This document shows, piece after piece, positions 10,874 through 61,625 of a stretch of 64,000 bases of DNA. A model generated the notes under the pieces. The model had not been told where the DNA came from and made no database searches. It was given only the letters and a program-made list of their open reading frames with translations. Source of the DNA: Escherichia phage EJP2. Every line of letters begins with the position of its first letter. Position 1 is the first letter of the stretch. The stretch lies in the sequence record OQ411014.1; one strand, 5' to 3'. The position numbers were made by a program, and so were the translations under genes.

Positions 10874-11442
10874 CAATGATCAATAGTAATACTTATATGC
10901 GTTACCTACGTATGGGCGTTTCTTTAGTTCCAGTTCGTGGAAAAGATTCAGTAGACCAAGAGTTCGCATATGCGATGCCTATTGATGGTGTACAGTACGT
11001 ACTGAACGATGGTGGTATGTACGAAGATACAAATGAGTCCGAAGACATGTCTGATATGCTTCAGAACTTATTAGCAGTAGTCAATAGTGACCGTCATGAT
11101 AAAGTAAAACGCGTTACTACGTTCCTGGAAAAGAATCTACACAAAACTGTTTGGTGTGAGATTGCTTCTGGACCACAACTGGGTTTGCTATTCGGGAACG
11201 CAGATGGTACAATTTGTCAATTAGCGATGGATTTCCGTTCTCCAGAGCAGTTCCAAGAGTACCGTGCATCTATCATCGAACACTTTGCAGCACTCGGTCT
11301 TGACGAATCTAAGATTCCAGAAATTAGTCCAATGGATACATTTGTACTGATTCCTGAGAGTCCAGCATTCGAAGCACTATTCAGTACTTTCCAGTGCTTA
11401 GGGATTGAAGTAAGTCCAGCAGATGTAGATGATGAAGAATAA
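10870..11442 (+). CDS. hypothetical protein
   Basis: 190-aa ORF with acidic C-terminus. Confidence 0.5.
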   Translation: MTMINSNTYMRYLRMGVSLVPVRGKDSVDQEFAYAMPIDGVQYVLNDGGMYEDTNESEDMSDMLQNLLAVVNSDRHDKVKRVTTFLEKNLHKTVWCEIASGPQLGLLFGNADGTICQLAMDFRSPEQFQEYRASIIEHFAALGLDESKIPEISPMDTFVLIPESPAFEALFSTFQCLGIEVSPADVDDEE

Positions 11443-11493
11443 TTAGTACTGTATATGTATACACCTTTACGATAAAGTCTTAAATATCTGAAG

Positions 11494-11724
11494 GTGTATA
11501 TTGTCATAGGAGGAAAAGTTATGAAATATTCATTGATTCGTTTAGGATTATTTGTTACAGTAGTCTTAATGGTTGTGATTGGTTCAGTACTGACACAGTT
11601 ATACCCTGCGTTTATTTTACTCGCTGGGATTTTTGGTTCAGTACTGATTGGGCTGGTGGGTTGGGCTTTGCAGCTTACCATCGATGCGGAATTAGAAAAG
11701 AGGATTAAAGATAAAGATGAATGA
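11494..11724 (+). CDS. small membrane protein
   Basis: 76 aa, two hydrophobic helices, RBS GGAGG. Confidence 0.55.
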   Translation: MYIVIGGKVMKYSLIRLGLFVTVVLMVVIGSVLTQLYPAFILLAGIFGSVLIGLVGWALQLTIDAELEKRIKDKDE

Positions 11725-11876
11725 TAAAGGTGAAGAGGAAGTCTTCTGTACTGCGTGCAATCTGTACGTACAACCTGAATACAGTTCGTACTCATGTATT
11801 TCACAGTACGGTTCATCAGTGTTCTGTAAAGAACTCTGTCCTATTTGTTATAAACAATTTCGGGAATTTTTAGTCG

Positions 11877-21965: not shown

Positions 21966-23381
21966 ATGAGCGTACTTTCTATTTTGACTGAACTAAAAGA
22001 CAATGCATCTATTCTGGTCAAAAAAGACATTCTCAATAAAAACAAGGACGATGCAGTACTGCAACGTGTTCTCAAACTAGCTTTAGACCCAGGAATTGTA
22101 AGTGGTTATAAGAAGCTACCGAATCCCTTCGTTAGTGAAACTAAGTACACACTCAACGAAGCACTAAATCAGCTTGATGATATCTACACTCGTAAGTACA
22201 CTGGTCATGCTGGACGTGACCACATTGCACAAATCCTAGGTTCAGTCACTGAAGATGACCGTGAAGTTATCCGTCGAGTACTGACTAAGGACTTAGAGTG
22301 TGGTGCTAGTGATAAGATTGTGAACGATGTATTTGGTAAAGGTTTTGTCAAAGATGAACCGTATATGCGTTGTTCATTGATTGATCATAAAACTGCAAAA
22401 AACATCAACTTCGATGGTTATGGTTATGCTGTCTCTGAAGTAAAAATGGACGGCACTTACCTGAACCACGTAGTCATCAACAATGCACTAACATCCTCAT
22501 CCAGAAATGGTAAACTATATGATTTTCTTGGTTGTCGTGACTTAGAAATGAGTGGGGTTGCTGGAATCATTCAGAAAAATGATCCACGTTTCAGTTCTGG
22601 TGTAGTTTTCATGGGAGAAGGTTTAGTACTAGACACTGATGGCACTATTCTTCCACGAACAACTGGTAATGGGATCATCCAAAAAGCGGGTAAAGATTCC
22701 ATAACATCGTTCGAAGCTATGCGGGTAGTCTTTGTATTATGGGACGTTGTTCCATATGATGCATTCTGTAATGGTTTTTGGGATGTGAAACGCAAAGAGC
22801 GTCGTGAAATACTTGAAAGTGCAATCAACGAATTCGATAGTGAATTTGTACGTATGGTTGAGTACCGTAAAGTAAAAAATCTAAAAGAAGCATTTGATTA
22901 TAACACTGAACTCATGAACAAGGGTGAAGAAGGTTCAGTACTGAAATGTGAAGATGGTGTTTGGAAATCACACACTTCTCCTAAGCAATTGAAAATGAAA
23001 CTGAAAATGCAAATTGATTTACGCATTGTAGGATTCAATGAAGGGGATAAGAAACGTAAAGGCTGTTTGGGTTCTTTACAACTTGAAAGTGATTGTGGTA
23101 CATTGAAAGTGAATGTAGGTACTGGTATCAAAGAGAAAGATGCCGAATGGACATTCAAAAGTATCTGGGAAAAACGTTTTGAACTATTGAATAAGATTGT
23201 CACTGTTGAGGCAAATGAAATCGTAGTTGATAAACGTACTGGAGAACCATCACTATTTTTGCCAGTGTTTGTTGAATTTAGATTTGACAAGGACACATGT
23301 GACACGTATACTCGTATCTTAGAAATTCGAGAAAGTGCTGTTGAGGTATTTGCAAACAGTATTGTTAGTTCTTTATTGTAA
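21966..23381 (+). CDS. ATP-dependent DNA ligase
   Basis: adenylation motif I KMDG (SEVKMDGTY); 471 aa, similar in size to T4 gp30. Confidence 0.7.
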   Translation: MSVLSILTELKDNASILVKKDILNKNKDDAVLQRVLKLALDPGIVSGYKKLPNPFVSETKYTLNEALNQLDDIYTRKYTGHAGRDHIAQILGSVTEDDREVIRRVLTKDLECGASDKIVNDVFGKGFVKDEPYMRCSLIDHKTAKNINFDGYGYAVSEVKMDGTYLNHVVINNALTSSSRNGKLYDFLGCRDLEMSGVAGIIQKNDPRFSSGVVFMGEGLVLDTDGTILPRTTGNGIIQKAGKDSITSFEAMRVVFVLWDVVPYDAFCNGFWDVKRKERREILESAINEFDSEFVRMVEYRKVKNLKEAFDYNTELMNKGEEGSVLKCEDGVWKSHTSPKQLKMKLKMQIDLRIVGFNEGDKKRKGCLGSLQLESDCGTLKVNVGTGIKEKDAEWTFKSIWEKRFELLNKIVTVEANEIVVDKRTGEPSLFLPVFVEFRFDKDTCDTYTRILEIRESAVEVFANSIVSSLL

Positions 23382-23451
23382 GATAACATTCGTTCCAGTA
23401 CTGAATACGTTATAAAATTTCTAAAATGTTTACCTAATATTAGAAGGGCAA

Positions 23452-23856
23452 ATGAAACCAATATCTAAGGCGACGTTGATGATGTACAAGGATGTACTGT
23501 ACATCACAGCCAAATCAACAAGCATTCAATCTCCAGGGATGGGTCTGTTCTCGGTGCAACGAAGATCAATTTTGTATTATGATTTTTTTGCAGAATTTGA
23601 TTTTGTTGATGCGTCGCTGACGATACATAAAACACGACACGGTTCAGTAAACGATACATTTGATAATTGTCTTGACAACTGCCAGATTGATGGTGTAAAG
23701 TATGTCCTATCAAACGGACTAAGAGCACCATCTCTTGCAGATTTCAGATGTTCTCAAGTTTTCTATGCAGAAGTGCTTGACGAGAACAATAAGTTGAATT
23801 ACAATACTCTTCTTGGTGCACTTCTGGTTGAACAGAATCGCTGGAAAGATATCTAA
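23452..23856 (+). CDS. hypothetical protein
   Basis: 134-aa ORF. Confidence 0.5.
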   Translation: MKPISKATLMMYKDVLYITAKSTSIQSPGMGLFSVQRRSILYYDFFAEFDFVDASLTIHKTRHGSVNDTFDNCLDNCQIDGVKYVLSNGLRAPSLADFRCSQVFYAEVLDENNKLNYNTLLGALLVEQNRWKDI

Positions 23857-23941: not shown

Positions 23942-24634
23942 ATGTTTCATAACTCTATCAAAGCCAATGCATACGAAGAACCAACCAACATGACTATTCC
24001 AATCGTTGTTGAACAGACTCATAATGGTGAGCGTTCTTATGATTTACCATCTCGTTTGATGAACTCTCGTATCATCATGGTTGATACTGATTTCAACGAC
24101 CAGATGGCATATGTAATCAAAATGCAGTTGCTGTGGCTTGATAGTCAAAGTGCAGACCCAATCACTATGTACATCAACTCCCCTGGTGGTTCAGTACATG
24201 CTGGTTTAGGTATTGCTGATGTAGTTGCGAACCTTCGCTCTCCAGTACGCACTATCGTTATGGGTATGGCTGCATCGATGGGTTGTTACATGCAAAGTAC
24301 TATGGGTACTCCTGGTCTGCGTCTAGCAGGTAAACGTGCACAAATCATGGCACACCAAGTATCTTCTGGTACACAAGGTCTGATTCTAGACCAAGAGATT
24401 TCTCTGAATCATAGTAAGCGTTTGAACAAACTCTTGACTGAAGAGATTGCTGAAGCAGTAGGTATGCCGATTGAACAATTCCTTATTGACTGTAACCGCG
24501 ATTTGTGGTTAAATGCTGAAGAAGCATTGAACTACGGCACTAAAGGTTTCATCGATGGTATCTATCTGGGTAAACAAAACGAACAAGGCCAACTACTTGT
24601 CCAACGTCGTGGTGGTGTTGAGGAATGGGTGTAA
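23942..24634 (+). CDS. clpP: ClpP-family serine protease
   Basis: INSPGGSVHAG and catalytic-serine motif GMAASMG. Confidence 0.8.
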   Translation: MFHNSIKANAYEEPTNMTIPIVVEQTHNGERSYDLPSRLMNSRIIMVDTDFNDQMAYVIKMQLLWLDSQSADPITMYINSPGGSVHAGLGIADVVANLRSPVRTIVMGMAASMGCYMQSTMGTPGLRLAGKRAQIMAHQVSSGTQGLILDQEISLNHSKRLNKLLTEEIAEAVGMPIEQFLIDCNRDLWLNAEEALNYGTKGFIDGIYLGKQNEQGQLLVQRRGGVEEWV

Positions 24635-27310: not shown

Positions 27311-27819
27311 AACTAAAAGAACTCGACGTTGCCAGTACTCTAATTTGGATTTCAAATTTAGATAAGGTAGCTAAGGTATATAACTTAGCACTTGCTTATC
27401 ATAAAGAAATCACAGATAAAGCTGAACGTGAATTCGAAGAACATTATAGTAGTAAGTGGTTTTATCGTACCTTCACCAATGCGAATGATTATAAGAACGC
27501 ATGGTATGAAGATGATGGTAAGCACTATACTTTTGGGTGGATATTGGGTATCTTTGAATTGAGCAAGATGACAGTACTACCAGATGAGTTTCCAGAGTTA
27601 GCTAATCAATTGGCTGCTGATTGGGCTACTGGTTATCCAACTAAGTTGGAGCGTACAATCACTGCTTGGTCTAAATATGCAAAGCGACCCTTTGAAATTA
27701 CTACAGAAGATTTGACTTTGTATTTTGAATTCAAAGCGTGGCACTCTCTACTAAAAGAACTAACTACAGCTTTGGGGATTTATGATGAAGCACTCGACTT
27801 GGATGAAGATTGCATGTGA
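27307..27819 (+). CDS. hypothetical protein
   Basis: 170-aa ORF. Confidence 0.5.
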   Translation: MKLKELDVASTLIWISNLDKVAKVYNLALAYHKEITDKAEREFEEHYSSKWFYRTFTNANDYKNAWYEDDGKHYTFGWILGIFELSKMTVLPDEFPELANQLAADWATGYPTKLERTITAWSKYAKRPFEITTEDLTLYFEFKAWHSLLKELTTALGIYDEALDLDEDCM

Positions 27820-28258
27820 CGTAGCAGATGAGAGTAAGTGTATCTCTCATCACGTTGGTGCAGTTATAGTAAACAATGACAGGATTGTCAGTACTGGATA
27901 CAATGGCACACCACCTAAGCAGCCTAATTGCTGTGATGTGAATGCTCATCTGGTACACGACAAGACCTTACAACAATGGGTATCTGATGATGCTAAGGTA
28001 GAGCATCATCACTGGAGTCAATTACATGAGATTCATGCTGAGATGAATGCGTTATTGTATTCTTCTCCGAAGGATCGTATTGGGGCAACTCTTTACAGTA
28101 CTCTACAGCCGTGCTATACTTGCTCTTTATTGATTGCTGCTAGTGGTATCACTAAAGTGATTTATGAGAAGGGATATCCACGAACTCCACCTGAAGCTAC
28201 TTCAGTACTGGAACAGGCGGGTATTGAAATTATCAAGTTTTCTGACTTAGGGGAATAA
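27782..28258 (+). CDS. cd: dCMP deaminase (cytidine/deoxycytidylate deaminase family)
   Basis: zinc-binding motifs HAEMNAL and PCYTCS. Confidence 0.7.
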   Translation: MMKHSTWMKIACDVADESKCISHHVGAVIVNNDRIVSTGYNGTPPKQPNCCDVNAHLVHDKTLQQWVSDDAKVEHHHWSQLHEIHAEMNALLYSSPKDRIGATLYSTLQPCYTCSLLIAASGITKVIYEKGYPRTPPEATSVLEQAGIEIIKFSDLGE

Positions 28259-28260
28259 GT

Positions 28261-28527
28261 ATGATTTACATTATCCTTGGTGTCATCACTATGGCTATCA
28301 CAATTCTTCTTCTTATTGTTGGTGATAAGGTTGGTGTAGTAGAAGAGCCTCCTGGATTGGTTCGGAATTATGAAGTGCGATTTGAACCATCCAATAACAA
28401 GTACTATCTTGTGAATGTACTACCTAAGAAAGAAGTACCTGTAACGAATTGGTACGGGAAGAGAATCATGTATAAGGATATGATCCTAGCGGATTATGTT
28501 CGTGAAAAAATGAATTCTGTGAAATGA
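28261..28527 (+). CDS. small membrane protein
   Basis: N-terminal hydrophobic helix IYIILGVITMAITILLLIV. Confidence 0.5.
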   Translation: MIYIILGVITMAITILLLIVGDKVGVVEEPPGLVRNYEVRFEPSNNKYYLVNVLPKKEVPVTNWYGKRIMYKDMILADYVREKMNSVK

Positions 28528-28530
28528 AAA

Positions 28531-28557
28531 AAGGAGCCATATGGCTCCTTTTCTTTT
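28531..28557. terminator. bidirectional intrinsic terminator
   Basis: palindrome AAGGAGCCAT/ATGGCTCCTT flanked by an A run on one side and a T run on the other. Confidence 0.65.
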
Positions 28558-28661
28558 AGAAAACAATTTAATATCTGGATAATCATTTCAGTCCTTTAAC
28601 ATAATCCCACTGCGGCGGGATATTGGTTTGACATATCAAATTATCCCTAAATGTATTAATT

Positions 28662-29081
28662 TTATTCGTCATCTTTGTTGACAAAATCCAAATCTAGTAC
28701 ACTAGGTGGTGGTACATTACAAAAATATAAATCCCACGGTTTGTAGATTGATTCACCTGAACTTAACTTAATTTTGTGCGTTTGAAATGAAGTAACAAAT
28801 GCTTGATCTATTCGCATAAAAAATGTATTCTTACCAAGCAATGTAGACAGTACTGAATCAGATGCACTTGTGTCCAAGTACTGACCATCTTTATCAGTAT
28901 ATGTCAATCTGATAAAGCTGAAAATATTACCATCAGTGTCAACTAAATCAAAGGTGTTATCAGAGCGTTGTCTGAAAATATTGATGTTGTTTTTGATTAC
29001 ACCATTAATGTTTGCAACTGGGACACAGAATCCACCAATACTAAAAGGTAGTTCACCTCTACCTGCAATCACTTTTGCCAT
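28662..29081 (-). CDS. hypothetical protein, N-terminal paralog of the 29920-30576 gene
   Basis: one of only two convincing minus-strand genes; N-terminal region alignable with the Ig-like protein at 29920-30576. Confidence 0.55.
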   Translation of the reverse strand: MAKVIAGRGELPFSIGGFCVPVANINGVIKNNINIFRQRSDNTFDLVDTDGNIFSFIRLTYTDKDGQYLDTSASDSVLSTLLGKNTFFMRIDQAFVTSFQTHKIKLSSGESIYKPWDLYFCNVPPPSVLDLDFVNKDDE

Positions 29082-29238
29082 ACTATATCCTTTTATAAAA
29101 AACTGGTCATAAAATGACCTACATAATATTTATGTTACTTGTTCATTTTTTGTACAGCTAATGCTAAATAAATTTATATTGACACTGATAAGCAAACATG
29201 CTAGAGTAATCATCTTACACATTCATTGTAGAGGGTAT

Positions 29239-29853
29239 ATGAAAAAAATTCCATTAGAATTGTTACAGATATTTCTTATCTGGTTGCTATGTACTGTTCC
29301 CAGTTCAGCAGAAAGTTTGTCCAGTACTATCTTTAGAGATAAAGAGAATATTGTTCATTTTGGTGCTCCAGTTTCATTCGAGGCATATAGCAAATTACTG
29401 AAAATGTATAAGATAAAACCATTTTCTGAAATTAGACTCACCAGTAATGGTGGAGAATATGATGCTGGTATGAAGATTGCTCACTTAGTTTACACCAATG
29501 ACATATCAGTCTTTGTTCCAAAGTACTGTGCAAGTGCATGTACATTTATATTTTTTGGAGCTAGGGTTGAGCACCGTGACATTGCACCAACGGCAATGTT
29601 GGGATTACATAATGTGTCGTTTGGTATGAACAACTCAACGGGTGAAGACGCGAATAACTCGTCGATAACAGTCAAGGAGGCACTTGATTTTGCACAAGAA
29701 GCAGTTGTAAGATCAGGAATGATGATTTCATTCTATTCTGCGAATGGGATACCAAGTGATGTACTACTTCAAGTATCACAAACATATGGTCAAGGTATCA
29801 TAAATGTGCAACGGGCTGACTTAGTTCGTTGGGGTGCAATACAAGCGAAATAA
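29239..29853 (+). CDS. secreted protein with possible ClpP/SppA-like fold
   Basis: start set at the ATG after RBS AGAGGG; signal-peptide-like MKKIPLELLQIFLIWLLCTVPSSA; TSNGGEYDAG and CASACTF loosely resemble ClpP motifs. Confidence 0.45.
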   Translation: MKKIPLELLQIFLIWLLCTVPSSAESLSSTIFRDKENIVHFGAPVSFEAYSKLLKMYKIKPFSEIRLTSNGGEYDAGMKIAHLVYTNDISVFVPKYCASACTFIFFGARVEHRDIAPTAMLGLHNVSFGMNNSTGEDANNSSITVKEALDFAQEAVVRSGMMISFYSANGIPSDVLLQVSQTYGQGIINVQRADLVRWGAIQAK

Positions 29854-29878
29854 AAAAGGAGCCTAAAGGCTCCTTTTT
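29853..29878. terminator. bidirectional intrinsic terminator
   Basis: AGGAGCC-TAAA-GGCTCCT with flanking A5 and T5 runs. Confidence 0.65.
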
Positions 29879-29919
29879 GAATGTTTAATATCAAACCACA
29901 ATAAAAAAGTGGTTAACTT

Positions 29920-30576
29920 TTACGCCCCCAAAATAGTAACATTACATTGTGCAGTAAAATTACCATCAACACTAGTTGCTGTTATAATAGCATTCCCAGC
30001 CAACAAACCAGTGACCAGACCAGAATCAGAAACTGAAGCTACTGTTGGTTCGGAAGATTCCCACAGTACTGATTGGTTTGTAGCATCCTCTGGTGTGAAA
30101 ATTGGCGTGAGTTGGTCAGTTTCACCTGTCTGAATAGAAGATGTTACTTTATTCAATGCAAGACCAGTAACATACACTGAACGATCACGTTGACTTGCAT
30201 AAGAATTAAGATAAAATGATGAACCATCGCCTAGGATGATTTTATTTAAGAATAGTTTTATTGCAAAACCGACCAGTTCATCTTTTTCTGGATCATATAC
30301 CTTAATACAAAATTTACCAGGGTCAAGTTTAGCAGCAAGTTCTTCATCGGTATCACTTAGCAATAACGGTTGTTTGTTCTTATCCAAAGCTGTTATTTGA
30401 AGAAATTCATATAGTGAATCACCAGTTTTGGATTGCAAGTCAAACATGATAGTACTTCTCTGTTTTGATATATTAATAGTAGTTAGTTCTGTACCATCTT
30501 TCAATACGGCAGCGTTGACATTTATACCCGAAATATCGAACGGAAATTGGTCGCGGCGAGCAATTGGTTTACCCAT
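29920..30576 (-). CDS. Ig-like (Big_2-type) domain protein, possible virion decoration or adhesin
   Basis: C-terminal ~70 aa match the Big_2 pattern (SVLWESSEPTVASVSDSGLVTGLLAGNAIITATSVDGNFTAQCNVTI). Confidence 0.6.
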   Translation of the reverse strand: MGKPIARRDQFPFDISGINVNAAVLKDGTELTTINISKQRSTIMFDLQSKTGDSLYEFLQITALDKNKQPLLLSDTDEELAAKLDPGKFCIKVYDPEKDELVGFAIKLFLNKIILGDGSSFYLNSYASQRDRSVYVTGLALNKVTSSIQTGETDQLTPIFTPEDATNQSVLWESSEPTVASVSDSGLVTGLLAGNAIITATSVDGNFTAQCNVTILGA

Positions 30577-30633
30577 TGTAACCTCCTTATAGTTTACAAT
30601 TTTAAATATTTATCCATAATGTGCTAAAAAAAC

Positions 30634-30663
30634 TTGCACATTCCAAGATAATACTGATATAAT
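30634..30663 (+). promoter_or_regulatory. sigma70-type promoter with extended -10
   Basis: TTGCAC 30634-30639 and TGaTATAAT ending at 30663. Confidence 0.55.
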
Positions 30664-30716
30664 AGACTCATCCAACGCGAAGTTGGTGTAAACAAACTAC
30701 TAAGAGGACTTAGACA

Positions 30717-31790
30717 ATGAAAAACGAAAACGTATATGTATACATCGGACGCTTCCAGCCAGCACATAAAGGCCACGAAGCAGTACTTGAAAATGCAATC
30801 AAAAAAGCTGACCGTGTTGTTATTCTAGTGGGTAGTGCTGAACAAGCTCGTTCCCCTAAGAACCCGTTCACCTTTGAAGAACGCCAAAAAGTACTGGACG
30901 GTATCACAACTCGTCTTGCACAAGATGAATGGGCGAAAGGTCGCCGTGTGATGATCGACATCCTACCTGTACATGACTTCGTATACAACAACCAGAAATG
31001 GCTCATGGAAGTTCAAGAACAAGTTCGTTCCTGCACTAAAAGTGAAAACATTACTCTAACTGGTTGTCGTAAACATGGCGATGATAGTACTTTCTATCTT
31101 GAGTTCTTCCCTCAGTGGAATCAAGATTTCATTACAGAAACTACACAAGAAGATGTTGGTATCAATGCCACTCAACTACGTAACCAATTCTTCAGTACTA
31201 AACAAGTACCTGAACAAAATGTACTTACTCCTGAAACTGTAGAGTTCCTTGAGAAGTTCAGCGTAGAAAAGAAAGATGTACTAGATTACCTAGTGAAAGA
31301 ACATGCTTTTACTACAAAATATAAAGCAGACATGAAGAAACAACTACCATTTGACACAATCCCATTCCTGACTGGTGATAGTCTGATTGTCTGTGCAGGT
31401 CATGTTCTTGTAGGTATTCGTCGCTCTGAACCAGGCAAAGGTCAGTACTGTCTACCTGGTGGGTTCTTCGATGCATGGAAAGATAAAGATCAAGTTGATA
31501 CTGCTTTACGTGAACTCAAAGAAGAAACCAAAATTGATGTACCAATGAATAAACTACGCGGTTCTATTGAACGTGTAGAAGAGTTTGGTGACTTTGACCG
31601 TGACCCACGCTGGCGTGTAATCACTAAGTGCATCTACATCAAACTTGACGGTACTAAACTACCTAAAGTAAAAGGCTCAGATGATCTCAAAGGTTGCTTC
31701 TGGATGCCTATGACTGAAATTGCTAAAAATCGTGCTAACTTCTTTGTTGATCACGTTTCCATCATTGACACGTTCTTAGGAATCCTGTAA
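30717..31790 (+). CDS. natV: bifunctional NMN adenylyltransferase / Nudix hydrolase (NadM-Nudix, NatV-like)
   Basis: N-terminal YIGRFQPAHKGH (HxGH) and a C-terminal Nudix box (...ALRELKEETKI). Confidence 0.75.
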   Translation: MKNENVYVYIGRFQPAHKGHEAVLENAIKKADRVVILVGSAEQARSPKNPFTFEERQKVLDGITTRLAQDEWAKGRRVMIDILPVHDFVYNNQKWLMEVQEQVRSCTKSENITLTGCRKHGDDSTFYLEFFPQWNQDFITETTQEDVGINATQLRNQFFSTKQVPEQNVLTPETVEFLEKFSVEKKDVLDYLVKEHAFTTKYKADMKKQLPFDTIPFLTGDSLIVCAGHVLVGIRRSEPGKGQYCLPGGFFDAWKDKDQVDTALRELKEETKIDVPMNKLRGSIERVEEFGDFDRDPRWRVITKCIYIKLDGTKLPKVKGSDDLKGCFWMPMTEIAKNRANFFVDHVSIIDTFLGIL

Positions 31791-31791
31791 T

Positions 31792-32331
31792 ATGAATGTA
31801 ATTTCTCTGACTCCAGGTTTGAAAGCAGACTTGGATGCAGTAAAGGAAAGTAAGTACAATAAGATAACTAGCTGTACTGAACTAATCTTGAGTACTGATG
31901 GTTATTCTGAATGTAATCAATTGTTCGTTGATGCACTTCAACACATTGATAAAAAACTGTATCTAACCGATTTTCTTTATCTTATTCAGAGAACGTGGAT
32001 TAGCAATGCACAAAACAGAAATCACCTGAATTCAGGTGAAAGTACTTCAAGCTATGGTTATTGGAAATATAACTTCGCTGGAGTATCATCGGATACTTTA
32101 TACATTACGAACTATGTTCCGTCTGGAAATATCAGAATTGTCGATTCAGTACAACATTATGAATATTATGATATTGACACGGAAAAGCCAAGTCTGTATA
32201 CTATATCCGATATCGTAATTAGAAATGAAAAGACATTGTTCAACATGGTATTTCCAACGACTACTAAACTGTTTTCGAAGGAATACATGAAGTTCACAAT
32301 TCCATTGTCTCTGATTATGAACAACCAATAA
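31792..32331 (+). CDS. hypothetical protein
   Basis: 179-aa ORF between the two NAD salvage genes. Confidence 0.5.
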   Translation: MNVISLTPGLKADLDAVKESKYNKITSCTELILSTDGYSECNQLFVDALQHIDKKLYLTDFLYLIQRTWISNAQNRNHLNSGESTSSYGYWKYNFAGVSSDTLYITNYVPSGNIRIVDSVQHYEYYDIDTEKPSLYTISDIVIRNEKTLFNMVFPTTTKLFSKEYMKFTIPLSLIMNNQ

Positions 32332-32379
32332 GAACGCGGAGTTCTTATATAACATCAACTACCAAAGAGGTAATATAAA

Positions 32380-33852
32380 ATGCAAAACGTAAATTTCATC
32401 CTAAACGCAGATAGTTACAAGCACTCTCATTTACTAATGATGAAAGAAGGTGTTCAAGCTCTTGAATCAAACATCATTGCTCGTAAACCATCTAAATTCA
32501 CCAGTCATGTAGTTATGATGGGTCTTCAGATTTTCGTTCAGGAATATCTGGATATCACAATTACTGCGGCTGATATCGATGAAGCAGAGATTGAAACAAA
32601 CGAACGTGGTGATGATTTTGACCGCGACTTCTGGGAACACATCGTGAATGTACACAAAGGTAAACTACCTTTACATATCCGTGCTATCCCTGAAGGTACA
32701 GTAGTTCCAGTTGGTATGCCGTTGGTTCGCTCCTTCAGTACTGACCCACGTACTATGGTACTCGCTAGTTTCGTCGAAACTCAATTACAACGTGCAATCT
32801 GGTTCCAAACTACTGTTGCATCTAATGCTCGCAGTATCAAGGAATTTCTTGCTGATACTATGGAACGTCATGCTGGTCATCGCTTTGTGGATTATCATCT
32901 ACATAACTTCGGCTGTCGTGGTGCAAGTTCCTATGAAACAGCAATGCTCGCAGGTGTAGCTCATGCCGCTCTATTCAGTGGCTCTGACTGCCTATTAGCA
33001 AACCGTAGTATCAAATACTACTACAATACTACTAAACCATATGTTAGTAGTGTTATGGCGAGTGAACACAGTGCTACATGTTCTAACTCCGATGCAGACA
33101 AGCGTGATGATTCAGCAATGGCGTTGAAGATGGTTCGCCTATGGGAAAAGAAAGTAGATAAGTTCATTGCTAATGGTTCAGTTGGTGCACCCCCAATTGT
33201 TTCTGTAGTAATCGATACTTATGATGCTTATCGCTTTGTTCGTGAGTTCATCGGTACTCGTCTAAAATCTACAATCGAAGAGATTGCAGCTAAATGTCCA
33301 AGTGCTAAACTAGTAATGCGTCCTGATAGTGGTAATCCACTAACTATGCCAATCGAAATCGTATCTATCCTTATGGAGAAATTCGGTTCAGTACTGAATG
33401 CTAATGGCATGAAAGTACTTCCATCTTTCATTGGTGTTCTTCAGGGCGACGGAGTTTCAGAAAGTTCAATCCGTGAAATCGTCCACAACCTAGAGAAAAA
33501 GAACTACTCTCTAGAGAATCTAATCTTTGGTATGGGTGGTAAAAACTCCCACGTCGAAGGTGGTCGTGATGCATATTCTTTCGCCCAGAAAGGTTGTGCA
33601 CAGCAACTAGCTGATGGTACTTGGGAAGATTTGTTCAAAGATCCTATTACTGACGTTGGGAAAAAATCCCTTCGTGGTCGTGTAACTACTTACTTGTGCA
33701 AAGAAAGTGGGAAGATGATGGCTGAACGAATCGAACTACAAGAAGTAAATCCTTTCTTAGAAGATATGATGGTTGACATTTTTGTAAATGGTGATATCAT
33801 GAATCTAAGCTCTTTTGATGATGTACGTGCTCGTGCGAACAAGGGATTGTAA
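32380..33852 (+). CDS. nadV: nicotinamide phosphoribosyltransferase (NAMPT/NadV)
   Basis: 490 aa; N-terminal NADSYKHSH and overall pattern match the NAMPT family. Confidence 0.8.
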   Translation: MQNVNFILNADSYKHSHLLMMKEGVQALESNIIARKPSKFTSHVVMMGLQIFVQEYLDITITAADIDEAEIETNERGDDFDRDFWEHIVNVHKGKLPLHIRAIPEGTVVPVGMPLVRSFSTDPRTMVLASFVETQLQRAIWFQTTVASNARSIKEFLADTMERHAGHRFVDYHLHNFGCRGASSYETAMLAGVAHAALFSGSDCLLANRSIKYYYNTTKPYVSSVMASEHSATCSNSDADKRDDSAMALKMVRLWEKKVDKFIANGSVGAPPIVSVVIDTYDAYRFVREFIGTRLKSTIEEIAAKCPSAKLVMRPDSGNPLTMPIEIVSILMEKFGSVLNANGMKVLPSFIGVLQGDGVSESSIREIVHNLEKKNYSLENLIFGMGGKNSHVEGGRDAYSFAQKGCAQQLADGTWEDLFKDPITDVGKKSLRGRVTTYLCKESGKMMAERIELQEVNPFLEDMMVDIFVNGDIMNLSSFDDVRARANKGL

Positions 33853-37624: not shown

Positions 37625-37957
37625 ATGTATAAGATGTTTATAGACGACCTTCGGGATGCAGAGAAGCATTACCCAAATGAAGGATTCATCGTCACAAGGA
37701 CTTACAATGAAGCTGTACAGTACGTACAAGAACATGGTCTACCTAGTTTTGTTTCATTCGACCATGACTTGGGCGACACTGACAGTACTGATGAGAAGAC
37801 TGGATATTCTTTTGCTAAGTTCCTCATCGAGTACATGATTGATAACGATTTGCGGGAACCGTTTGAGTACTTTATTCACAGTGCTAATCCAGTTGGTGCA
37901 GAGAATATCAAACAGTACTTGCAAAATGGGTTCAACTTTATCCAAGGGCAAGCATGA
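37625..37957 (+). CDS. hypothetical protein
   Basis: 110-aa ORF. Confidence 0.5.
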   Translation: MYKMFIDDLRDAEKHYPNEGFIVTRTYNEAVQYVQEHGLPSFVSFDHDLGDTDSTDEKTGYSFAKFLIEYMIDNDLREPFEYFIHSANPVGAENIKQYLQNGFNFIQGQA

Positions 37958-38244
37958 AAGTAATAACATTTATTCTGATTTTGATTGTTGTTGTTGGTAT
38001 TCGCCTTAAAATAGCGGAGAACCAATACAACACTGAAAGACTGAATATTACGAAAGAATCTGGAACAGTAGTTGCAACTGGACAATGCAACAAATACACT
38101 TGTGCTTACTCTGTAAAAACCTCTAGTGGTTCTACAGTGAACAGTACTGGTGACACTCCGGTAAGTCTCGGTCAAATCGTATACCGTGAATGCTGGGAAG
38201 AAAGGGTCAGGGGTCCGCGTTGTTACGTAGACTTTAGACCATAA
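37954..38244 (+). CDS. small secreted or membrane protein
   Basis: N-terminal hydrophobic MKVITFILILIVVVGI and several cysteines. Confidence 0.45.
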   Translation: MKVITFILILIVVVGIRLKIAENQYNTERLNITKESGTVVATGQCNKYTCAYSVKTSSGSTVNSTGDTPVSLGQIVYRECWEERVRGPRCYVDFRP

Positions 38245-38269
38245 AACACTATCATGAAAAGGGAATTTT

Positions 38270-39724
38270 ATGAAAAAATATGCTATTGATACAAACGTAC
38301 TTCTAAGCGATCCAAACGCAGCAACCGCTTTCAAAGGTGCTACAGTGGTTCTACCATTTACAGTACTGGAAGAAATGGACTCCATCAAGAGTCGTGGTGT
38401 TGACGTTAGCCGTGATGCACGTGTAGCAATTCGCAATATCAGTAACATCCTGGAAGACGCGTCTCATGAAGAGATTAGTACTACTGGGGTTGATATGTCC
38501 AAACTACATCCACATTTAGATTCCGACAGTCGTCTAATGATTGTTACATCTGAAGAAGCTGAAGCACTTCTACGTGTTGCAGGTATTGATAAGTCCGATG
38601 CTGAACTTACAAAAGTTGCTACACTAATGAACAGTACTGTACCGGATGACAAGATTATTCTTGTTGCTCTAGCTACAGAATCAGTACTGGTTACTCGTGA
38701 TATCAACATGCGTATCAAAGCTATGGCTTATGGTGTTGAAGTTCAGGACTATCGTAGTGATGTTACTATTTCCGATTCTGACCTACTACATATTGGGAAC
38801 CACAAACTAGAGTTTTCGTTCTGGGATACCATTGCGGATCGTGGTTTAGAAGTTTTCAGTACTAAAGAAGGTCGTAACACTTATCAACTAATTGCTAAAG
38901 ATGCAATTCAGGATCTACTACCAGAAAATCTATGCGTTGGTGACTATCTATATGATGACACTGATTTGCTAATGGTATATGATGGAGAAGGTGATCGTGA
39001 GTTCTCTGATGGTGAAGTTGATGACACAGTGTACTCCGTGTTCATTGATGTTGGTCAACACAGTGCAATGCGTACTAAGATTTGGGATATCAAAGCTAAG
39101 AACGTGAAACAAGCAATGGCAATCAACAGTATTCTTGACCCTAATGTTCACTTGACAGTACTGTTAGGTTCTGCGGGTACAGGTAAGACTTTGATTACTC
39201 TAGCATGTGCACTAGAACTAACATTAGAGAAGCGTCAGTACGATAAAGTTATTTTCTCTAAAACCCAAGACTCACAGTTTGATGAAATTGGTTTCTTACC
39301 AGGAACCGAAATGGAAAAAATGCTTCCGAATTGTGGACCTGCACTGGATGCATTGGAATTCCTTCACAAAGATGATGCTAACCCTCAAGGTTCAATTGAA
39401 GAAATCATCAAACGTAATGTTGTACAATTCAAAGCACTGAACTTTATTCGTGGACGTTCGTTTACCAATACAATTCTAGTTGTTGATGAATTCCAAAACA
39501 TTACTCCGGCTCAAGCTAAAACTATCTTGACACGGGCAGGAATGAACTGTAAAGTTATCATCATGGGTAACTTAGCACAGATTGATAGTAAGTTTATCAG
39601 TTCTGTAAACAGCGGTTTGACCTATGTAGTTGAGAAGTTCAAAGATTGGGAAGGTTGTCGTATCATCGAACTCGAAGGTGTTGTACGTTCTGCACTAGCT
39701 GAATTCGCTGAAGAAAATATGTAA
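38270..39724 (+). CDS. phoH: PIN-domain / PhoH-like ATPase fusion (PhoH2-type)
   Basis: N-terminal PIN-like YAIDTNVLLSDP; Walker A LLGSAGTGKT and conserved PhoH C-terminal region. Confidence 0.8.
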   Translation: MKKYAIDTNVLLSDPNAATAFKGATVVLPFTVLEEMDSIKSRGVDVSRDARVAIRNISNILEDASHEEISTTGVDMSKLHPHLDSDSRLMIVTSEEAEALLRVAGIDKSDAELTKVATLMNSTVPDDKIILVALATESVLVTRDINMRIKAMAYGVEVQDYRSDVTISDSDLLHIGNHKLEFSFWDTIADRGLEVFSTKEGRNTYQLIAKDAIQDLLPENLCVGDYLYDDTDLLMVYDGEGDREFSDGEVDDTVYSVFIDVGQHSAMRTKIWDIKAKNVKQAMAINSILDPNVHLTVLLGSAGTGKTLITLACALELTLEKRQYDKVIFSKTQDSQFDEIGFLPGTEMEKMLPNCGPALDALEFLHKDDANPQGSIEEIIKRNVVQFKALNFIRGRSFTNTILVVDEFQNITPAQAKTILTRAGMNCKVIIMGNLAQIDSKFISSVNSGLTYVVEKFKDWEGCRIIELEGVVRSALAEFAEENM

Positions 39725-40409: not shown

Positions 40410-41108
40410 ATGAATTTCGAACAGACAGTACTGAAAGCTGTTAGAGAACACGTAATATACTTCAGTGGTTACAGTACTTTTAGGGGGTATTACATCGTTG
40501 GTTCATTCATGCAATGTAAACGTTGTATCTTCATGGAACCTAAAGATATAGATGTAATTATTGTAACCAATGAGAAAGAAGAAATAGGTGAAAAGGAATA
40601 TAGTTTCTTCATTGAAGAAGCTGATAACATTGAAGTTAATGTTACAGTACTGACACCTGTTGAAAACCTAAATTCTATAATCAGACTCGAACCAAAGTAC
40701 TTTGATTCATTCTGTTCATCTAAGTCTCTTGAATGGGACATTGATGGTATTCGTAATATTTCTAATTCTGAAATCAGGTCTAAGGTCATGAAGTTCTCTG
40801 ACTTAGCTTTCAACAAAGGCAAAAAGAAACTCACCATAGAAAAAGATTACGATGAAGAATTAGGACTCAAGAATATTTGTCATGCTTATCGTTTTCTGAT
40901 TGATGCTATCCGGTTCTATTACCCATCTACACCTATGTTAGAGAAAGAGATGATGGACTTAGGTTATAGCAAGTACCGCAATCGGGTTTATAAAATTTAC
41001 AAAAATACGCAAGGTACACTTGACGATAAGTACCAAGCTATGGTAAAGTACGCTAAACCTGAATACAACAGGATGTGTTCAGAGTTTAGGAAATTGTTCC
41101 CTCGATAA
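40410..41108 (+). CDS. putative nucleotidyltransferase-fold protein
   Basis: VGSF...(x14)...DIDVIIV resembles the minimal Pol-beta-type GS...DxD motif. Confidence 0.35.
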   Translation: MNFEQTVLKAVREHVIYFSGYSTFRGYYIVGSFMQCKRCIFMEPKDIDVIIVTNEKEEIGEKEYSFFIEEADNIEVNVTVLTPVENLNSIIRLEPKYFDSFCSSKSLEWDIDGIRNISNSEIRSKVMKFSDLAFNKGKKKLTIEKDYDEELGLKNICHAYRFLIDAIRFYYPSTPMLEKEMMDLGYSKYRNRVYKIYKNTQGTLDDKYQAMVKYAKPEYNRMCSEFRKLFPR

Positions 41109-48881: not shown

Positions 48882-51581
48882 ATGACTAAAAGAATTTATG
48901 GAGGCTTAGACGTTACTCATAACGTAACAGTTCAGGGCAAAAGGACAGTACAAGGTATCAATAATCAAGTATTCGATGCGAATGGTGATATGAAGATTAA
49001 TACCTATACTCAACAGGAATTACTCGATATTGTTAGCTTAATGCCAATATCACACTACGGTACTCACAACTACTTACCTGCTGGTGTTAGTGGGGACTTT
49101 AATGGTGCAGCGGAGAACCCAGCACAACGTAGAAACAAAATCCTACTGGAGAACGATGGTACACTAGTAATGCTACGTGCTGGTACAAACGGCAGTGTAG
49201 AAGGTTTATTCTATGCTTACCTACCAAATGCACTATCAGTTACTGATTTAGGTAGAGGTGTAAACACTGGTCGTCAGTACAAGCCAGGTTATTTTGGTAG
49301 TACTAAAACTGCTTTCGGTTTGTATAATACAGATGAGAACATTCTTCTAGGAAGATATTCTGATTCGTCAAATGGCAGTACTGGATGGTTTATTTCCATT
49401 ACTAACGGAACACTAGATGACACACAACATAATGGTTTCTTCTTGAATGCTTATACTGATATTGCCCCTCAAGGTGGTGTTGAATATGCAATGATGGCAG
49501 AAGATGGTTCAATTTACGTATTCAGTGTAGATACAAGTAATAACGAATTTAATATTGCAGTTGTTAGAGTTACTTTCAATTTGACGAATAAAACTTACAC
49601 AGCGTCAAGAATCACTGGTTGGACAACCAAGACGTTCTATAATACTACATATTCAGCAGATACTAATATTGTAGTGACGAAGAAAGTAAACTCAACTAAT
49701 ATCGCTGATAAGCCATATATGTACGTTCCGAATGGACTACTTGGTTTAGGTGTATACATGACGTCAATTGACTTGTGTGTAGCACAACAGCCAGGTACAC
49801 AGAACTTCCGCTTTAGAGTTAATGGTGATGCGTGGGCTACTATGGCAACGTATAATACCAGACCACAGCACAGTTATAGTTTCAACTTCAATATGAGTAC
49901 TAAACAATGTACGCTGGATGCAGGGAATGACATTGGTTCAAACGCAGCACCATTTATTGTTACTAATACAGGTTCACAATTAATTGCTTCTGGTAACGTA
50001 ATCAACCAAGATGATTTATATAATCACGGTGGGTGGAGAAACATTTATAGTTCTTACTATTACTTGGATATTGGTACAGTATTCTGTACTACGAGTCCTA
50101 ACTTGTCAGAACCATTGGGGATTGAAAAAGCAACATACCCAGCACAAAGTGTTTACAGTATGCTTAACGTAAGAGCAGTCAATGCATCAGCATTCAATAA
50201 AGGGAATCTTGGTCCTTCGTTCGGTTCAGCAGTTGGTTCTTACATTAACGGCGTAGAATTACTACCAGGTAACAGTACTAAACAATTCTCTCGTTCTTCT
50301 GGTACTGGTGCATTTAGACCATCATATGCAGTACATGCTGCTTCACCTACCTTTACGTTTAAATCTCTTTCAAGAGGTACAATGAAAGGTTATGAGCCTA
50401 CTGCTGAACGTGATTTCATTACAGATAATATAAACAACCGTATTTTCATTAGTACTGTATCTGGTTCGAATGTTACGACAAATGGTGGGATTTTCATGGT
50501 TGGTCAACGTTATTCACAGTCTTTGTCATTTGACAAACATGGTGTTGGTACTGGAACAATCTCGGTCACTGATTCAGTACTGGTAAATTTCAGAAATTCT
50601 GAATATGCAAAAGTACCTGCTTCATGGAATCTTTCTACAGCAGCAACTAAAGATATGACACTATTTGTTCCACAACAAACTGATATTCCTGCTTTTGTAA
50701 TGTTAAGTACTGTTACTACTGGAAATAAAAACTATATTAAGATTGTGGAAGTGAACGTTAATACCAGAAGTGGTAATATTACTTCAATTAGTTTTAAGCG
50801 TAATGTAATTGAAAACGTTTATGGTGATAGTTTTACACCAAATGGTGCTGGTGGTTTTGCTTCATCTTCTGTAGGTTTAACAATATATGATGGCGGTTCG
50901 TTCTACTTTATTGGTGGTTCAGATCCTTTATCTCACCCAACAATTGGCAATACGAATACACATCAATTCAGAGCTATTGTTACTAAAAGTACTGCACAAT
51001 TTGACAGCTTTATTATTTCAGGTTCACATGCTAGTTATGAACAGGGTATTCAACCTGCTGCTCTTCCTGGTATTGGCTTTGGGTATTTCCAAGCAATTGA
51101 CTACTCAAACAAAATGACATTCCAGAAATGTGGTACTACTGTTGCTGAATATAATGCATGGACAGCAATTGGTGATCCAATTAACGTAGTTTCACAAGAC
51201 GTTGCACAAGGATTTGTTGTTTACTTCAACGAAGAAACACCAGTAATGCTCAGTGGTAAGTCATTTACGATGCCAGTTCAAAGTGTTGATTTGAAAACTA
51301 TTAAAGCTAACCCAGCGAATACGACATTCCACATTTATGTGAGAATGAACCAAGGTAATGCAGAATATCATATAACTACTGAAGTTATTTCCGAAACTGG
51401 TAGTACTGCATATAACGTATTCTGGATTGGTACTGTTACTACGGATGCTATCCAAATCTCGACTATTAATGTATTCAAGCGTTCTCGTTTGGATGTATTT
51501 GGTGCATCACTTGAACCAACCGGATCATCATTCCCAGTGAGTTATGGTCTACCATCAGGCAACGGAACAATTAACTGGTAA
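48882..51581 (+). CDS. tail fibre / receptor-binding-like structural protein
   Basis: 899 aa, S/T/N/G/Y-rich and poor in charged residues; C-terminal ~110 aa module shared with the next two genes. Confidence 0.6.
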   Translation: MTKRIYGGLDVTHNVTVQGKRTVQGINNQVFDANGDMKINTYTQQELLDIVSLMPISHYGTHNYLPAGVSGDFNGAAENPAQRRNKILLENDGTLVMLRAGTNGSVEGLFYAYLPNALSVTDLGRGVNTGRQYKPGYFGSTKTAFGLYNTDENILLGRYSDSSNGSTGWFISITNGTLDDTQHNGFFLNAYTDIAPQGGVEYAMMAEDGSIYVFSVDTSNNEFNIAVVRVTFNLTNKTYTASRITGWTTKTFYNTTYSADTNIVVTKKVNSTNIADKPYMYVPNGLLGLGVYMTSIDLCVAQQPGTQNFRFRVNGDAWATMATYNTRPQHSYSFNFNMSTKQCTLDAGNDIGSNAAPFIVTNTGSQLIASGNVINQDDLYNHGGWRNIYSSYYYLDIGTVFCTTSPNLSEPLGIEKATYPAQSVYSMLNVRAVNASAFNKGNLGPSFGSAVGSYINGVELLPGNSTKQFSRSSGTGAFRPSYAVHAASPTFTFKSLSRGTMKGYEPTAERDFITDNINNRIFISTVSGSNVTTNGGIFMVGQRYSQSLSFDKHGVGTGTISVTDSVLVNFRNSEYAKVPASWNLSTAATKDMTLFVPQQTDIPAFVMLSTVTTGNKNYIKIVEVNVNTRSGNITSISFKRNVIENVYGDSFTPNGAGGFASSSVGLTIYDGGSFYFIGGSDPLSHPTIGNTNTHQFRAIVTKSTAQFDSFIISGSHASYEQGIQPAALPGIGFGYFQAIDYSNKMTFQKCGTTVAEYNAWTAIGDPINVVSQDVAQGFVVYFNEETPVMLSGKSFTMPVQSVDLKTIKANPANTTFHIYVRMNQGNAEYHITTEVISETGSTAYNVFWIGTVTTDAIQISTINVFKRSRLDVFGASLEPTGSSFPVSYGLPSGNGTINW

Positions 51582-51590
51582 GGAGAAATT

Positions 51591-52178
51591 ATGCCATTAC
51601 AATACAGAACGGACGTGAACGCAGCAGGACAAATTAAAGTACAGAATAAAACAACTGGTGTTTCTATTACATCAGGTAACGGTCAAGTATATTCTACAAC
51701 ATCTGCGGGGGCGATTACGTTCCCAGTACTGACAACTGATGATGTGGATTATATTACACTTGAATTACCACTCTCTCAGTTCGGAGAATTGTATGAGAAT
51801 ACTAGTCTTAATATTACAAGTACTGGTTTAGTACTGAAGTTTAATAGAATAATTCCACTCTTCATGAGTGGGATTTACTACGATGTTCCAGTTCAGAACA
51901 TCACAGCACAAGCTGCAACGTCAGGTACAGCAACATATTATGTGTATGTTAAACTAGAACTTGGTGCACCAAAATATTTCATCTCCAGAACAGAAGGTGT
52001 TGAGAACGAAATAACCATGTTCATAGGTACTATCACAGTAAGTACTACCACAATAACAGCAATCAATATTAACAAAGTTTCCAGATTCGGTACATACAGA
52101 CCGAGTACTACACAGAAAGGTTCTTCTTTCCCTGTCAGTACTGGACACCCTTCACAAACTGGTTCAATTAACTGGTAA
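51591..52178 (+). CDS. short paralog carrying only the fibre C-terminal module
   Basis: 195 aa; C-terminus RFGTYRPSTTQKGSSFPVSTGHPSQTGSINW matches the endings of both flanking large proteins. Confidence 0.55.
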   Translation: MPLQYRTDVNAAGQIKVQNKTTGVSITSGNGQVYSTTSAGAITFPVLTTDDVDYITLELPLSQFGELYENTSLNITSTGLVLKFNRIIPLFMSGIYYDVPVQNITAQAATSGTATYYVYVKLELGAPKYFISRTEGVENEITMFIGTITVSTTTITAININKVSRFGTYRPSTTQKGSSFPVSTGHPSQTGSINW

Positions 52179-61178: not shown

Positions 61179-61625
61179 ATGAGCGATTTTGATGCAGCAG
61201 TAGATATGCGTAACATACTGGATTACATGGATGATACAGTACAAGAGAACGGTTCTTCTGAACTACTTGAGTTCGTTGAGGATTGTATCTTTTTGGAATC
61301 ATTGAGTCACCACTGGCACTTACAGTGTAAGATTTATTCCAAACATATGGAACTCGATGAACTATACAAAGAAATTGGTGAATACGTTGATTCCTTCATT
61401 GAAGGACTAATGAGTACTCGTGGTGTTCTACCTATGGTATCGGAGAAGCAATACTTCTTCGTAGGATTAGATCAATGTATTCCAGTACTGGAACAGTACG
61501 TACAACAAGCTAAAGTCATCCATGAGATGTTAGCTGCTGAAGATGATTTCGGTTCAGTGAATAGTATTGAAGACATTATTAGTTTTCTAGAACGTACTCT
61601 TTACAAACTGAAGTGTCTAGACTAA
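61179..61625 (+). CDS. hypothetical protein
   Basis: 148-aa ORF. Confidence 0.5.
   Translation: MSDFDAAVDMRNILDYMDDTVQENGSSELLEFVEDCIFLESLSHHWHLQCKIYSKHMELDELYKEIGEYVDSFIEGLMSTRGVLPMVSEKQYFFVGLDQCIPVLEQYVQQAKVIHEMLAAEDDFGSVNSIEDIISFLERTLYKLKCLD

Follow-up and report, generated by a model that had tools for sequence, protein, structure and literature searches.

Why do two genes of Escherichia phage EJP2 (sequence record OQ411014.1) run against the direction of nearly everything around them, what do they encode, and does the plus-strand gene lying between them belong with them? These questions are raised by positions 28531-30576 of a 64,000-nucleotide stretch of this phage, referred to here as the window, in which the plus strand carries almost all open reading frames (ORFs) of at least 100 amino acids (aa). 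An original prediction, made from the letters of the sequence, had read the locus as one cassette bracketed by terminators, independently regulated, possibly expressed late or horizontally acquired, and encoding decoration or adhesin proteins. The three ORFs on which it was built were confirmed and are listed below.

28662-29081, minus strand: 139-aa anchor-only protein of the virion family (phrog_33171 'virion structural protein', E 3.9e-42)
29239-29853, plus strand: 204-aa putative exported ClpP-fold serine peptidase-like protein (phrog_26024 'protease', 1.5e-43), here called the ClpP-like protein
29920-30576, minus strand: 218-aa virion-family protein, with the anchor in codons 1-125 (30202-30576) and a Big_2 domain in residues 136-213 (29938-30171)

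We consider it likely, at a probability of roughly 0.75, that the two minus-strand genes are independent, monocistronic late genes for virion-surface proteins of RaK2-like jumbo phages, combining an N-terminal anchor with a variable display of immunoglobulin-like (Ig-like) domains. Protein searches and sensitive DNA searches grouped the window with the RaK2-like jumbo myophages, and judged by its sequence its source is a member of this group. DNA of Erwinia phage Hallingskeid was about 77% identical across 47% of an 8-kb stretch, further matches were to fHe-Yen9-04, Munch/7t3, CBB and GAP32, and a metagenomic contig (L008) was nearly identical and had the same layout as the window. When the region was compared with INPHARED by megablast, the sole match was a 37-nucleotide (nt) terminator in CBB, and no close phage genome was found.

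As had been proposed, the minus-strand proteins are paralogues of each other across residues 1-122 (BLASTP, 34% identity, E 6e-13), and both belong to a family defined by its N-terminal anchor (phrog_33171 / phrog_10468). The 139-aa protein also matches phrog_10468 (E 3.7e-14), and the 218-aa protein matches phrog_10468 at E 2.7e-17 and phrog_33171 at E 4.4e-12. The earlier assignment of a Big_2 domain (PF02368) to the 218-aa protein held in a Pfam profile search, with 65.3 bits against a cut-off of 22.8 (E 4.8e-18), and Big_2 domains in the PDB matched the protein at E 1e-14; the domain is not present in the 139-aa protein. NCBIfam gave no useful match for either protein. Within the anchor, residues I5, P12, F13, G17, A23, R39, D45 and L46 are invariant in the family.

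By these comparisons each protein can be placed in a recognisable type. The 139-aa protein has 55% identity to 121Q_471 and phAPEC6 gp347 (phrog_33171), which are likewise anchor-only products of antisense genes placed divergently beside a ClpP-like gene, but it is longer by an acidic, proline-rich tail (15 aa). The 218-aa protein is 49-52% identical, over its full length, to CBB_112, the GAP32 Ig-domain protein and fHe-Yen9-04 g094c, and 34% identical to RaK2 gp496. It is assigned to the type with an anchor and one Big_2 domain represented by CBB_112 and RaK2 gp496 (phrog_10468, phrog_215), the genes of which also lie antisense at the site after a dCMP deaminase gene. Since the 139-aa protein is 55% identical to 121Q gp471 and 34% identical to its neighbour, and the 218-aa protein shares about 50% identity with CBB_112 and g094c, the window proteins are old paralogues and not the product of a local duplication; the sequence relationships indicate that the two types split before these phage genera did.

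The family is held together by the anchor, for which there was no Pfam match and no solved structure, and for which phmmer found nothing in the PDB. An AF2 model of the 139-aa protein has its core at residues 18-115 (pLDDT 83-92), and the anchor is predicted to have a beta-rich core with a faint likeness to SH3/Tudor barrels and an N-terminal peptide that is conserved but unstructured. Matches found by Foldseek in BFVD were limited to RaK2-like homologues and unannotated jumbo-phage proteins. A word-indexed homology search with the 139-aa protein alone gave one near-identical protein, and a profile of ten phage homologues was needed; an exhaustive profile search then recovered 100 representatives among 1.84 billion proteins, with the anchor beginning at residue 1 in nearly all of them. 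The representatives were 76 to 2364 aa long, the clear members among them 102 to 1859 aa, and the C-terminal parts consisted of Big_2 repeats, other Ig-like domains or sequence with no Pfam match. The architecture is therefore that of a fixed N-terminal domain (about 120 aa, always at residues 1 to about 122) followed by 0 to 7 Ig-like domains, and as far as sampled the family appears to be confined to RaK2-like jumbo phages.

Homologues have been identified in purified virions by mass spectrometry, which bears out the decoration or adhesin reading in the original prediction. In CBB these were CBB_112 (4 peptides, 24.3% coverage) and CBB_496 (4 peptides, 17.5%) (PMC5259590), and in phAPEC6 the 14.1-kDa gp347, which is abundant in the virions (8 peptides, 75.2% coverage) (PMC7247149). 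Virion presence is thus known for these three homologues, and by homology the window proteins would be virion proteins as well. We propose that the N-terminal domain, about 120 aa long, holds the protein on the surface of the capsid or tail, and that the variable C-terminal part, with its 0 to 7 Ig-like domains, could give weak adhesion to host or environmental glycans. The genes are a conserved, already annotated feature of RaK2-like jumbo phages. The capsid maps of 121Q and phAPEC6 contain unassigned decoration densities and fibre densities at the hexamer centres; the anchor domain is a reasonable candidate for the unassigned decoration densities, and could also serve phage display on jumbo capsids.

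Ig-bearing capsid decoration proteins such as T4 Hoc and T5 pb10 are typically dispensable and bind late. Their architecture, a capsid-binding module joined to one or more exposed Ig-like domains, resembles that of the window family. T5 pb10 has the same order, with an N-terminal anchor and a C-terminal Ig domain, whereas in T4 Hoc the order is reversed, the Ig-like domains being N-terminal and the capsid-binding domain C-terminal. No similarity in sequence or fold was found between the anchor and T4 Hoc or T5 pb10, and the lone 'Hoc-like' match in the PDB (7x30_P, E 0.011) lay mostly over the Ig region. The likeness to T4 Hoc is best regarded as a functional analogy and not as membership.

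The second part of the question, why these genes point the other way, was approached through the elements around them.

29127-29133, minus strand: late-promoter-like ATAAATA, in the form CATAAATA, 45 nt ahead of the 139-aa gene's ATG
30607-30613, minus strand: late-promoter-like ATAAATA, in the form GATAAATA, 30 nt ahead of the 218-aa gene's ATG
29179-29207, plus strand: sigma70-like promoter TTGACA-17-TAGAGT with a TGn extended -10 (10/12 matches), upstream of the ClpP-like gene
30635-30663, plus strand: sigma70-like promoter TGCACA-17-TATAAT with a TGn extended -10, before the NadM/Nudix-NAMPT genes
28527-28557, both strands: predicted terminator T1, A6-GGAGCC-ATAT-GGCTCC-T4CT4, between the convergent 88-aa gene (plus) and 139-aa gene (minus)
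29852-29878, both strands: predicted terminator T2, A6-GGAGCC-TAAA-GGCTCC-T5, between the convergent ClpP-like gene (plus) and 218-aa gene (minus)
29105-29119, minus strand: GGTCAT-TTT-ATGACC, a small hairpin with a U-run after it, located in the 139-aa gene's leader, past the late-promoter motif and ahead of the ribosome-binding site (RBS)

The motif ATAAATA is four-fold depleted, with 6 copies on both strands of the window (40306, 48842, 58541 and 61144 on the plus strand, 29133 and 30613 on the minus strand) against 25.8 +/- 4.9 expected. Two of the six precede the two minus-strand genes and have the context ATAAATATT in common, and of the other four, two are a short distance upstream of ORFs. 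The context found before the 218-aa gene, GGATAAATATT, also sits 35 nt upstream of CBB_112, and ten related loci have one or two copies of ATAAATA per 4-11 kb, mostly 25-45 nt upstream of the family gene; RaK2 has ATAAATT instead. ATAAATA is the late-promoter consensus of CBB, which encodes a gp55-like sigma factor. Motif and spacing before both minus-strand genes fit a T4-type late promoter (TATAAATA; CBB variant ATAAATA), with the gp55-like sigma reported for CBB only. No transcriptome of a RaK2-like enterobacterial phage came up in a literature search.

In T4-type phages, late genes dispersed among early ones are reportedly transcribed, as a rule, from the opposite strand, and the arrangement of the minus-strand genes here fits this split. 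Both genes would be expressed late, each from a T4-like late promoter (G/C-ATAAATA) used, presumably, by host RNA polymerase with a phage gp55-like sigma, and each having its own Shine-Dalgarno sequence; that of the 218-aa gene is a strong AAGGAGGT RBS. Transcription would stop at an A-run/GC-hairpin/T-run terminator, which would also halt the convergent plus-strand early transcript, and plus-strand transcription would restart at the sigma70-like promoters in both divergent intergenic regions. The -10 element of the promoter at 30635-30663 is conserved in CBB and fHe-Yen9-04 by alignment. Independent and possibly late expression, as first suggested, is supported by the rare motif upstream of both ATGs and before homologues in other genera. 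The reversed orientation would in that case be the usual T4-type strand separation of late from early and middle genes, and in annotation it could be taken to mark late timing and not foreign origin.

The remaining two copies of ATAAATA that precede ORFs are 33 nt before an 899-aa ORF at 48882 (phrog_3573) and 28 nt before a DUF5856 ORF at 61179. These two ORFs may be further late genes embedded among the plus-strand genes.

The two hairpins in the original prediction were also recovered. GGAGCC-N4-GGCTCC occurs in the window only at 28533-28548 and 29858-29873, with 0.01 occurrences expected by chance. Folding energies were -15.4 kcal/mol (plus) and -17.3 kcal/mol (minus) for T1, and -16.2 and -15.7 kcal/mol for the two strands of T2, with z of both hairpins at -4 to -5.4. 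Each has a GC-rich hairpin, an upstream A-run, a downstream T-run and a convergent gene on either side, as predicted for bidirectional intrinsic terminators. T1 shares 97% identity with the terminator that separates CBB_111 from CBB_112, and a AAAAAAGGAGCC-N4-GGCTCCTTTT terminator is kept 3' of CBB_112 and g094c. What did not hold is the bracketing of 28531-30576: since T2 falls inside these limits, separating the ClpP-like gene from the 218-aa gene, the pair of terminators does not enclose an island. The order is the 88-aa gene (plus), T1, the 139-aa gene (minus) and a divergent intergenic region (29082-29238) on the left, then the ClpP-like gene (plus), T2, the 218-aa gene (minus), a divergent region (30577-30716) and the NadM gene (plus) on the right, where the edge is a divergent promoter region without a terminator. 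Instead of a single insulated cassette, the minus-strand genes are two separate monocistronic units, and each terminator serves one convergent pair.

Smaller hairpins were seen beside these elements. A 41-nt stretch with the hairpin at 29105-29119 folds at -8.6 kcal/mol (z -2.9); the hairpin is terminator-like on the minus strand, is also found in L008, and may serve as an attenuator or as a stabilising 5' stem-loop. Both minus-strand genes have an additional small hairpin in the 3' untranslated region (28604-28621 and 29893-29915), past the stop codon and ahead of the main terminator, and there are weak sigma70-like matches on the plus strand directly after T1 (28555-28624). Together, the 3' hairpins and the weak matches loosely recall the promoter/stem-loop shuffling cassettes of T4-type phages.

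The comparison with relatives requires the neighbouring genes, which are as follows.

27782-28258: dCMP deaminase gene, neighbour of the locus
28261-28527, plus strand: 88-aa membrane-protein gene
30717-31790, plus strand: bifunctional NadM/Nudix enzyme gene
32380-33852, plus strand: NAMPT gene

Antisense genes of the family occupy the same site, after the dCMP deaminase gene, in CBB, GAP32, fHe-Yen9-04, RaK2, 121Q and A4, and the synteny extends over at least five genera of RaK2-like phages. A shared order of dCMP deaminase, small membrane protein, antisense family gene or genes, an optional ClpP-like gene and, in some lineages, NadM was found in fHe-Yen9-04, CBB, RaK2, 121Q, A4 and two metagenomic relatives. 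The content of the site in relatives is given below.

CBB and GAP32: antisense family gene CBB_112; ClpP-like gene absent
fHe-Yen9-04: antisense family genes g094c and g095c; ClpP-like gene absent
RaK2 and K64-1: antisense family gene gp496; ClpP-like gene present, divergent
121Q and phAPEC6: antisense 471, with the additional small upstream ORF 472, and gp347, respectively; ClpP-like gene present
A4: antisense 463, 464 (seven Big_2 domains) and 466; ClpP-like gene present
Metagenomic relative L007: one antisense family gene of 643 aa; ClpP-like gene present

The check for presence in related phages thus gave two answers, with the antisense family genes conserved at the site and the ClpP-like gene patchy. 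Loci of the CBB_112 type have the terminator and ATAAATA as in the window, but RaK2 has a different hairpin along with its variant motif; compared with these loci, the window has a second family gene and the ClpP-like gene inserted between the terminator and the Ig gene. Family genes on both sides of the ClpP-like gene were found only in the window and L008 among the genomes examined. Every family member inspected is an antisense gene amid oppositely oriented neighbours, and CBB_496, encoded elsewhere in the CBB genome, is a lone antisense gene. The site after the dCMP deaminase gene is a conserved hot spot of variation in the surface-display proteins of RaK2-like phages.

Several points weigh against the interpretation as late virion-surface genes. 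The late timing rests on a motif, and this motif lies 97-187 nt upstream of the family gene in 121Q/phAPEC6 (145-187 nt) and of g095c, and is not found within 200 nt of Hallingskeid 0575 and A4_463. The family proteins could sit on the virion's capsid or on its tail, the phiKp24 capsid is reported to need no decoration protein (a family member in phiKp24 was not searched for), and a homologue is annotated in CBB as a 'major tail protein'.

This last label leads to the strongest alternative, that the family proteins are tail components, either major tail or tube proteins, decorations of the sheath or collar, or bases of tail 'hairs'. RefSeq uses the same label as CBB, phAPEC6 tails bear hair-like fibres and, at two levels, decoration proteins that are unassigned, and among distant Tudor-repeat proteins with a weak match to the anchor profile there are also sub-threshold matches to Gp18_dom_I (tail-sheath domain I). 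The label itself, widespread on these genes, is however by sequence an artefact of the Big_2 domain that is common to lambda gpV: matches to lambda gpV and tube proteins in the PDB are restricted to residues 126-216, and tail-protein families in PHROG cover residues 127 onward, bar one match from residue 63. The anchor model does not have a tail-tube fold of the lambda gpV or T4 gp19 kind at the N-terminus, and the tube protein of a related jumbo phage was recognised separately, through a sequence homology search. We regard a role in the tail as possible, but clearly less probable than the broader assignment to the virion surface, capsid or tail.

The third part of the question concerns the ClpP-like protein, for which the original prediction had noted a signal peptide and loose ClpP/SppA-like motifs. 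The signal peptide and the likeness to ClpP were upheld. The predicted signal peptide is conserved and ends PSSA|E, and Foldseek against ClpP in the PDB gave E 7e-9 with a TM of about 0.6. The invariant Ser99 (CASAC) and His124 (LGLHN) align with the ClpP nucleophile and general-base His, although the third residue of the triad (Asp) was not placed; the protein is thus predicted to have a ClpP fold with Ser and His in the canonical positions. In profile searches it stays just under the Pfam cut-off for CLP_protease (PF00574; 20.1 bits against 20.2), 13 of 15 family members match PF00574 at E <=0.01 (best 2.8e-5), and its scores against the NCBIfam ClpP models are far under the cut-offs. The SppA part found no support in profile searches: Peptidase_S49 (SppA/SohB) gave no match in Pfam at E up to 1, nor in NCBIfam, and two of the 15 family members had weak NfeD1b_N matches only. 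SppA/SohB proteins (S49) are exported, as the ClpP-like protein is predicted to be. Compared with ClpP (MEROPS S14), it has the same fold and the aligned Ser and His, but its N-terminus is a signal peptide and not axial loops.

The window also contains a canonical ClpP gene.

23942-24634, plus strand: canonical ClpP gene (TIGR00493, E 3.7e-49)

The ClpP-like protein matches its product at E 0.13 (BLASTP), which argues that it is not a recent copy of the canonical ClpP. A homologue of the latter, CBB_104, was detected in CBB virions by one peptide. The start at 29161 (230 aa) that public assemblies give for the ClpP-like gene was discarded for 29239 because all 15 homologues begin at the equivalent Met, a GAGGG RBS is present, and the sigma70-like promoter at 29179-29207 lies downstream of 29161.

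The conserved signal peptide argues against a cytoplasmic, ATPase-coupled role of the ClpP-like protein, and our best guess is an exported, ATPase-independent peptidase acting on envelope proteins. Invariant cysteines flank the predicted nucleophile (C97-A-S99-A-C101), and these could plausibly form a periplasmic disulfide once the protein is exported. An exported ClpP-fold protein of this kind would be an uncharacterised accessory enzyme of biochemical interest.

Does it belong with its neighbours? In the one-module explanation, the three genes form a single functional unit and the protease processes or acts with both Ig/anchor proteins, and it is true that a family gene adjoins a ClpP-like gene divergently in 121Q, A4, RaK2/K64-1, XaC1 and the window. 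However, the ClpP-like protein has a signal peptide, no comparable N-terminal hydrophobic sequence was seen in either anchor-family protein, and virions assemble in the cytoplasm. Its gene is on the opposite strand, behind a sigma70-like promoter and not ATAAATA. It is not at the CBB, GAP32 and fHe-Yen9-04 loci, which keep the Ig gene, and CBB still packages its Ig protein. In Hallingskeid the family gene and the ClpP-like gene are about 3 kb apart, and the ClpP-like protein is not among the CBB or phAPEC6 virion protein lists. The view that this gene is part of a cassette was accordingly abandoned; a single module of three genes is very unlikely, and any functional link of the ClpP-like protein to the decoration proteins is unlikely too. 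The mildly atypical codon usage of the ClpP-like gene (z -2.1), together with its patchy distribution, points to a more mobile element at the hot spot. In our proposal of two independent late genes it would be a separately expressed, variable neighbour, probably not functionally tied to them.

A more detailed picture is speculative and we hold it to be rather doubtful. In this, the anchor family would account for the unassigned capsid densities of RaK2-like phages (the hexamer-centre protein or fibre, or the lattice decoration of 121Q/phAPEC6) as a Hoc analogue with a new, faintly SH3/Tudor-like anchor, and anchor-only and Ig-bearing paralogues might compete for sites and so set adhesin display. 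Separately, the exported CASAC ClpP-fold protein would be an ATPase-independent periplasmic effector protease used early to remodel the host envelope, for example in superinfection exclusion or receptor removal.

That the island is a recently acquired, terminator-insulated foreign cassette (moron), as suggested by its orientation opposite to the rest of the window, its own promoters and terminators, the differing gene content of the site among phages and the somewhat atypical codon usage of the ClpP-like gene, is highly improbable, as the minus-strand genes have phage-typical codon usage (z +0.58 and +0.09) and unremarkable GC, orthologues with the same terminator lie at the same site in several genera, and the family is almost exclusive to RaK2-like phages. 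Recent horizontal gene transfer was rejected on the codon usage and synteny of the minus-strand genes.

The two genes remain the only convincing minus-strand genes of the window, in agreement with the first reading. Elsewhere, minus-strand ORFs of at least 100 aa overlap plus-strand genes with family support or, as below, plus-strand ORFs in the gaps between such genes. Four of these long minus-strand ORFs were checked and rejected as genes, their stretches being covered by plus-strand ORFs. The ORFs at 11217-11816 and 37876-38448 had no family matches, and the plus-strand ORFs there fill gaps between supported genes; that at 22898-23461 had no family matches either, and this ORF and that at 40490-40837 lie largely or wholly within a longer plus-strand ORF.

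Some features of the surroundings were also recorded. The 88-aa protein encoded at 28261-28527 (plus) has an N-terminal hydrophobic helix (phrog_19937), its gene is always found before the antisense gene site, and its homologues are CBB_111, 121Q_470 and fHe-Yen9-04 g093. Directly downstream of the locus, a NAD+ salvage module at 30717-33852 (plus) consists of the NadM/Nudix enzyme, a 179-aa protein and NAMPT, and CBB, fHe-Yen9-04 and Hallingskeid keep it together with the locus. Other parts of the window have tandem sets of paralogues, at 48882-51581, 51591-52178 and 52188-54941 (plus), at 8740-9309/9306-9836 and at 59731-60291/60288-60782. Among these are two proteins of about 900 aa that belong to phrog_3573, are 28% identical to each other and have a short related ORF between them.

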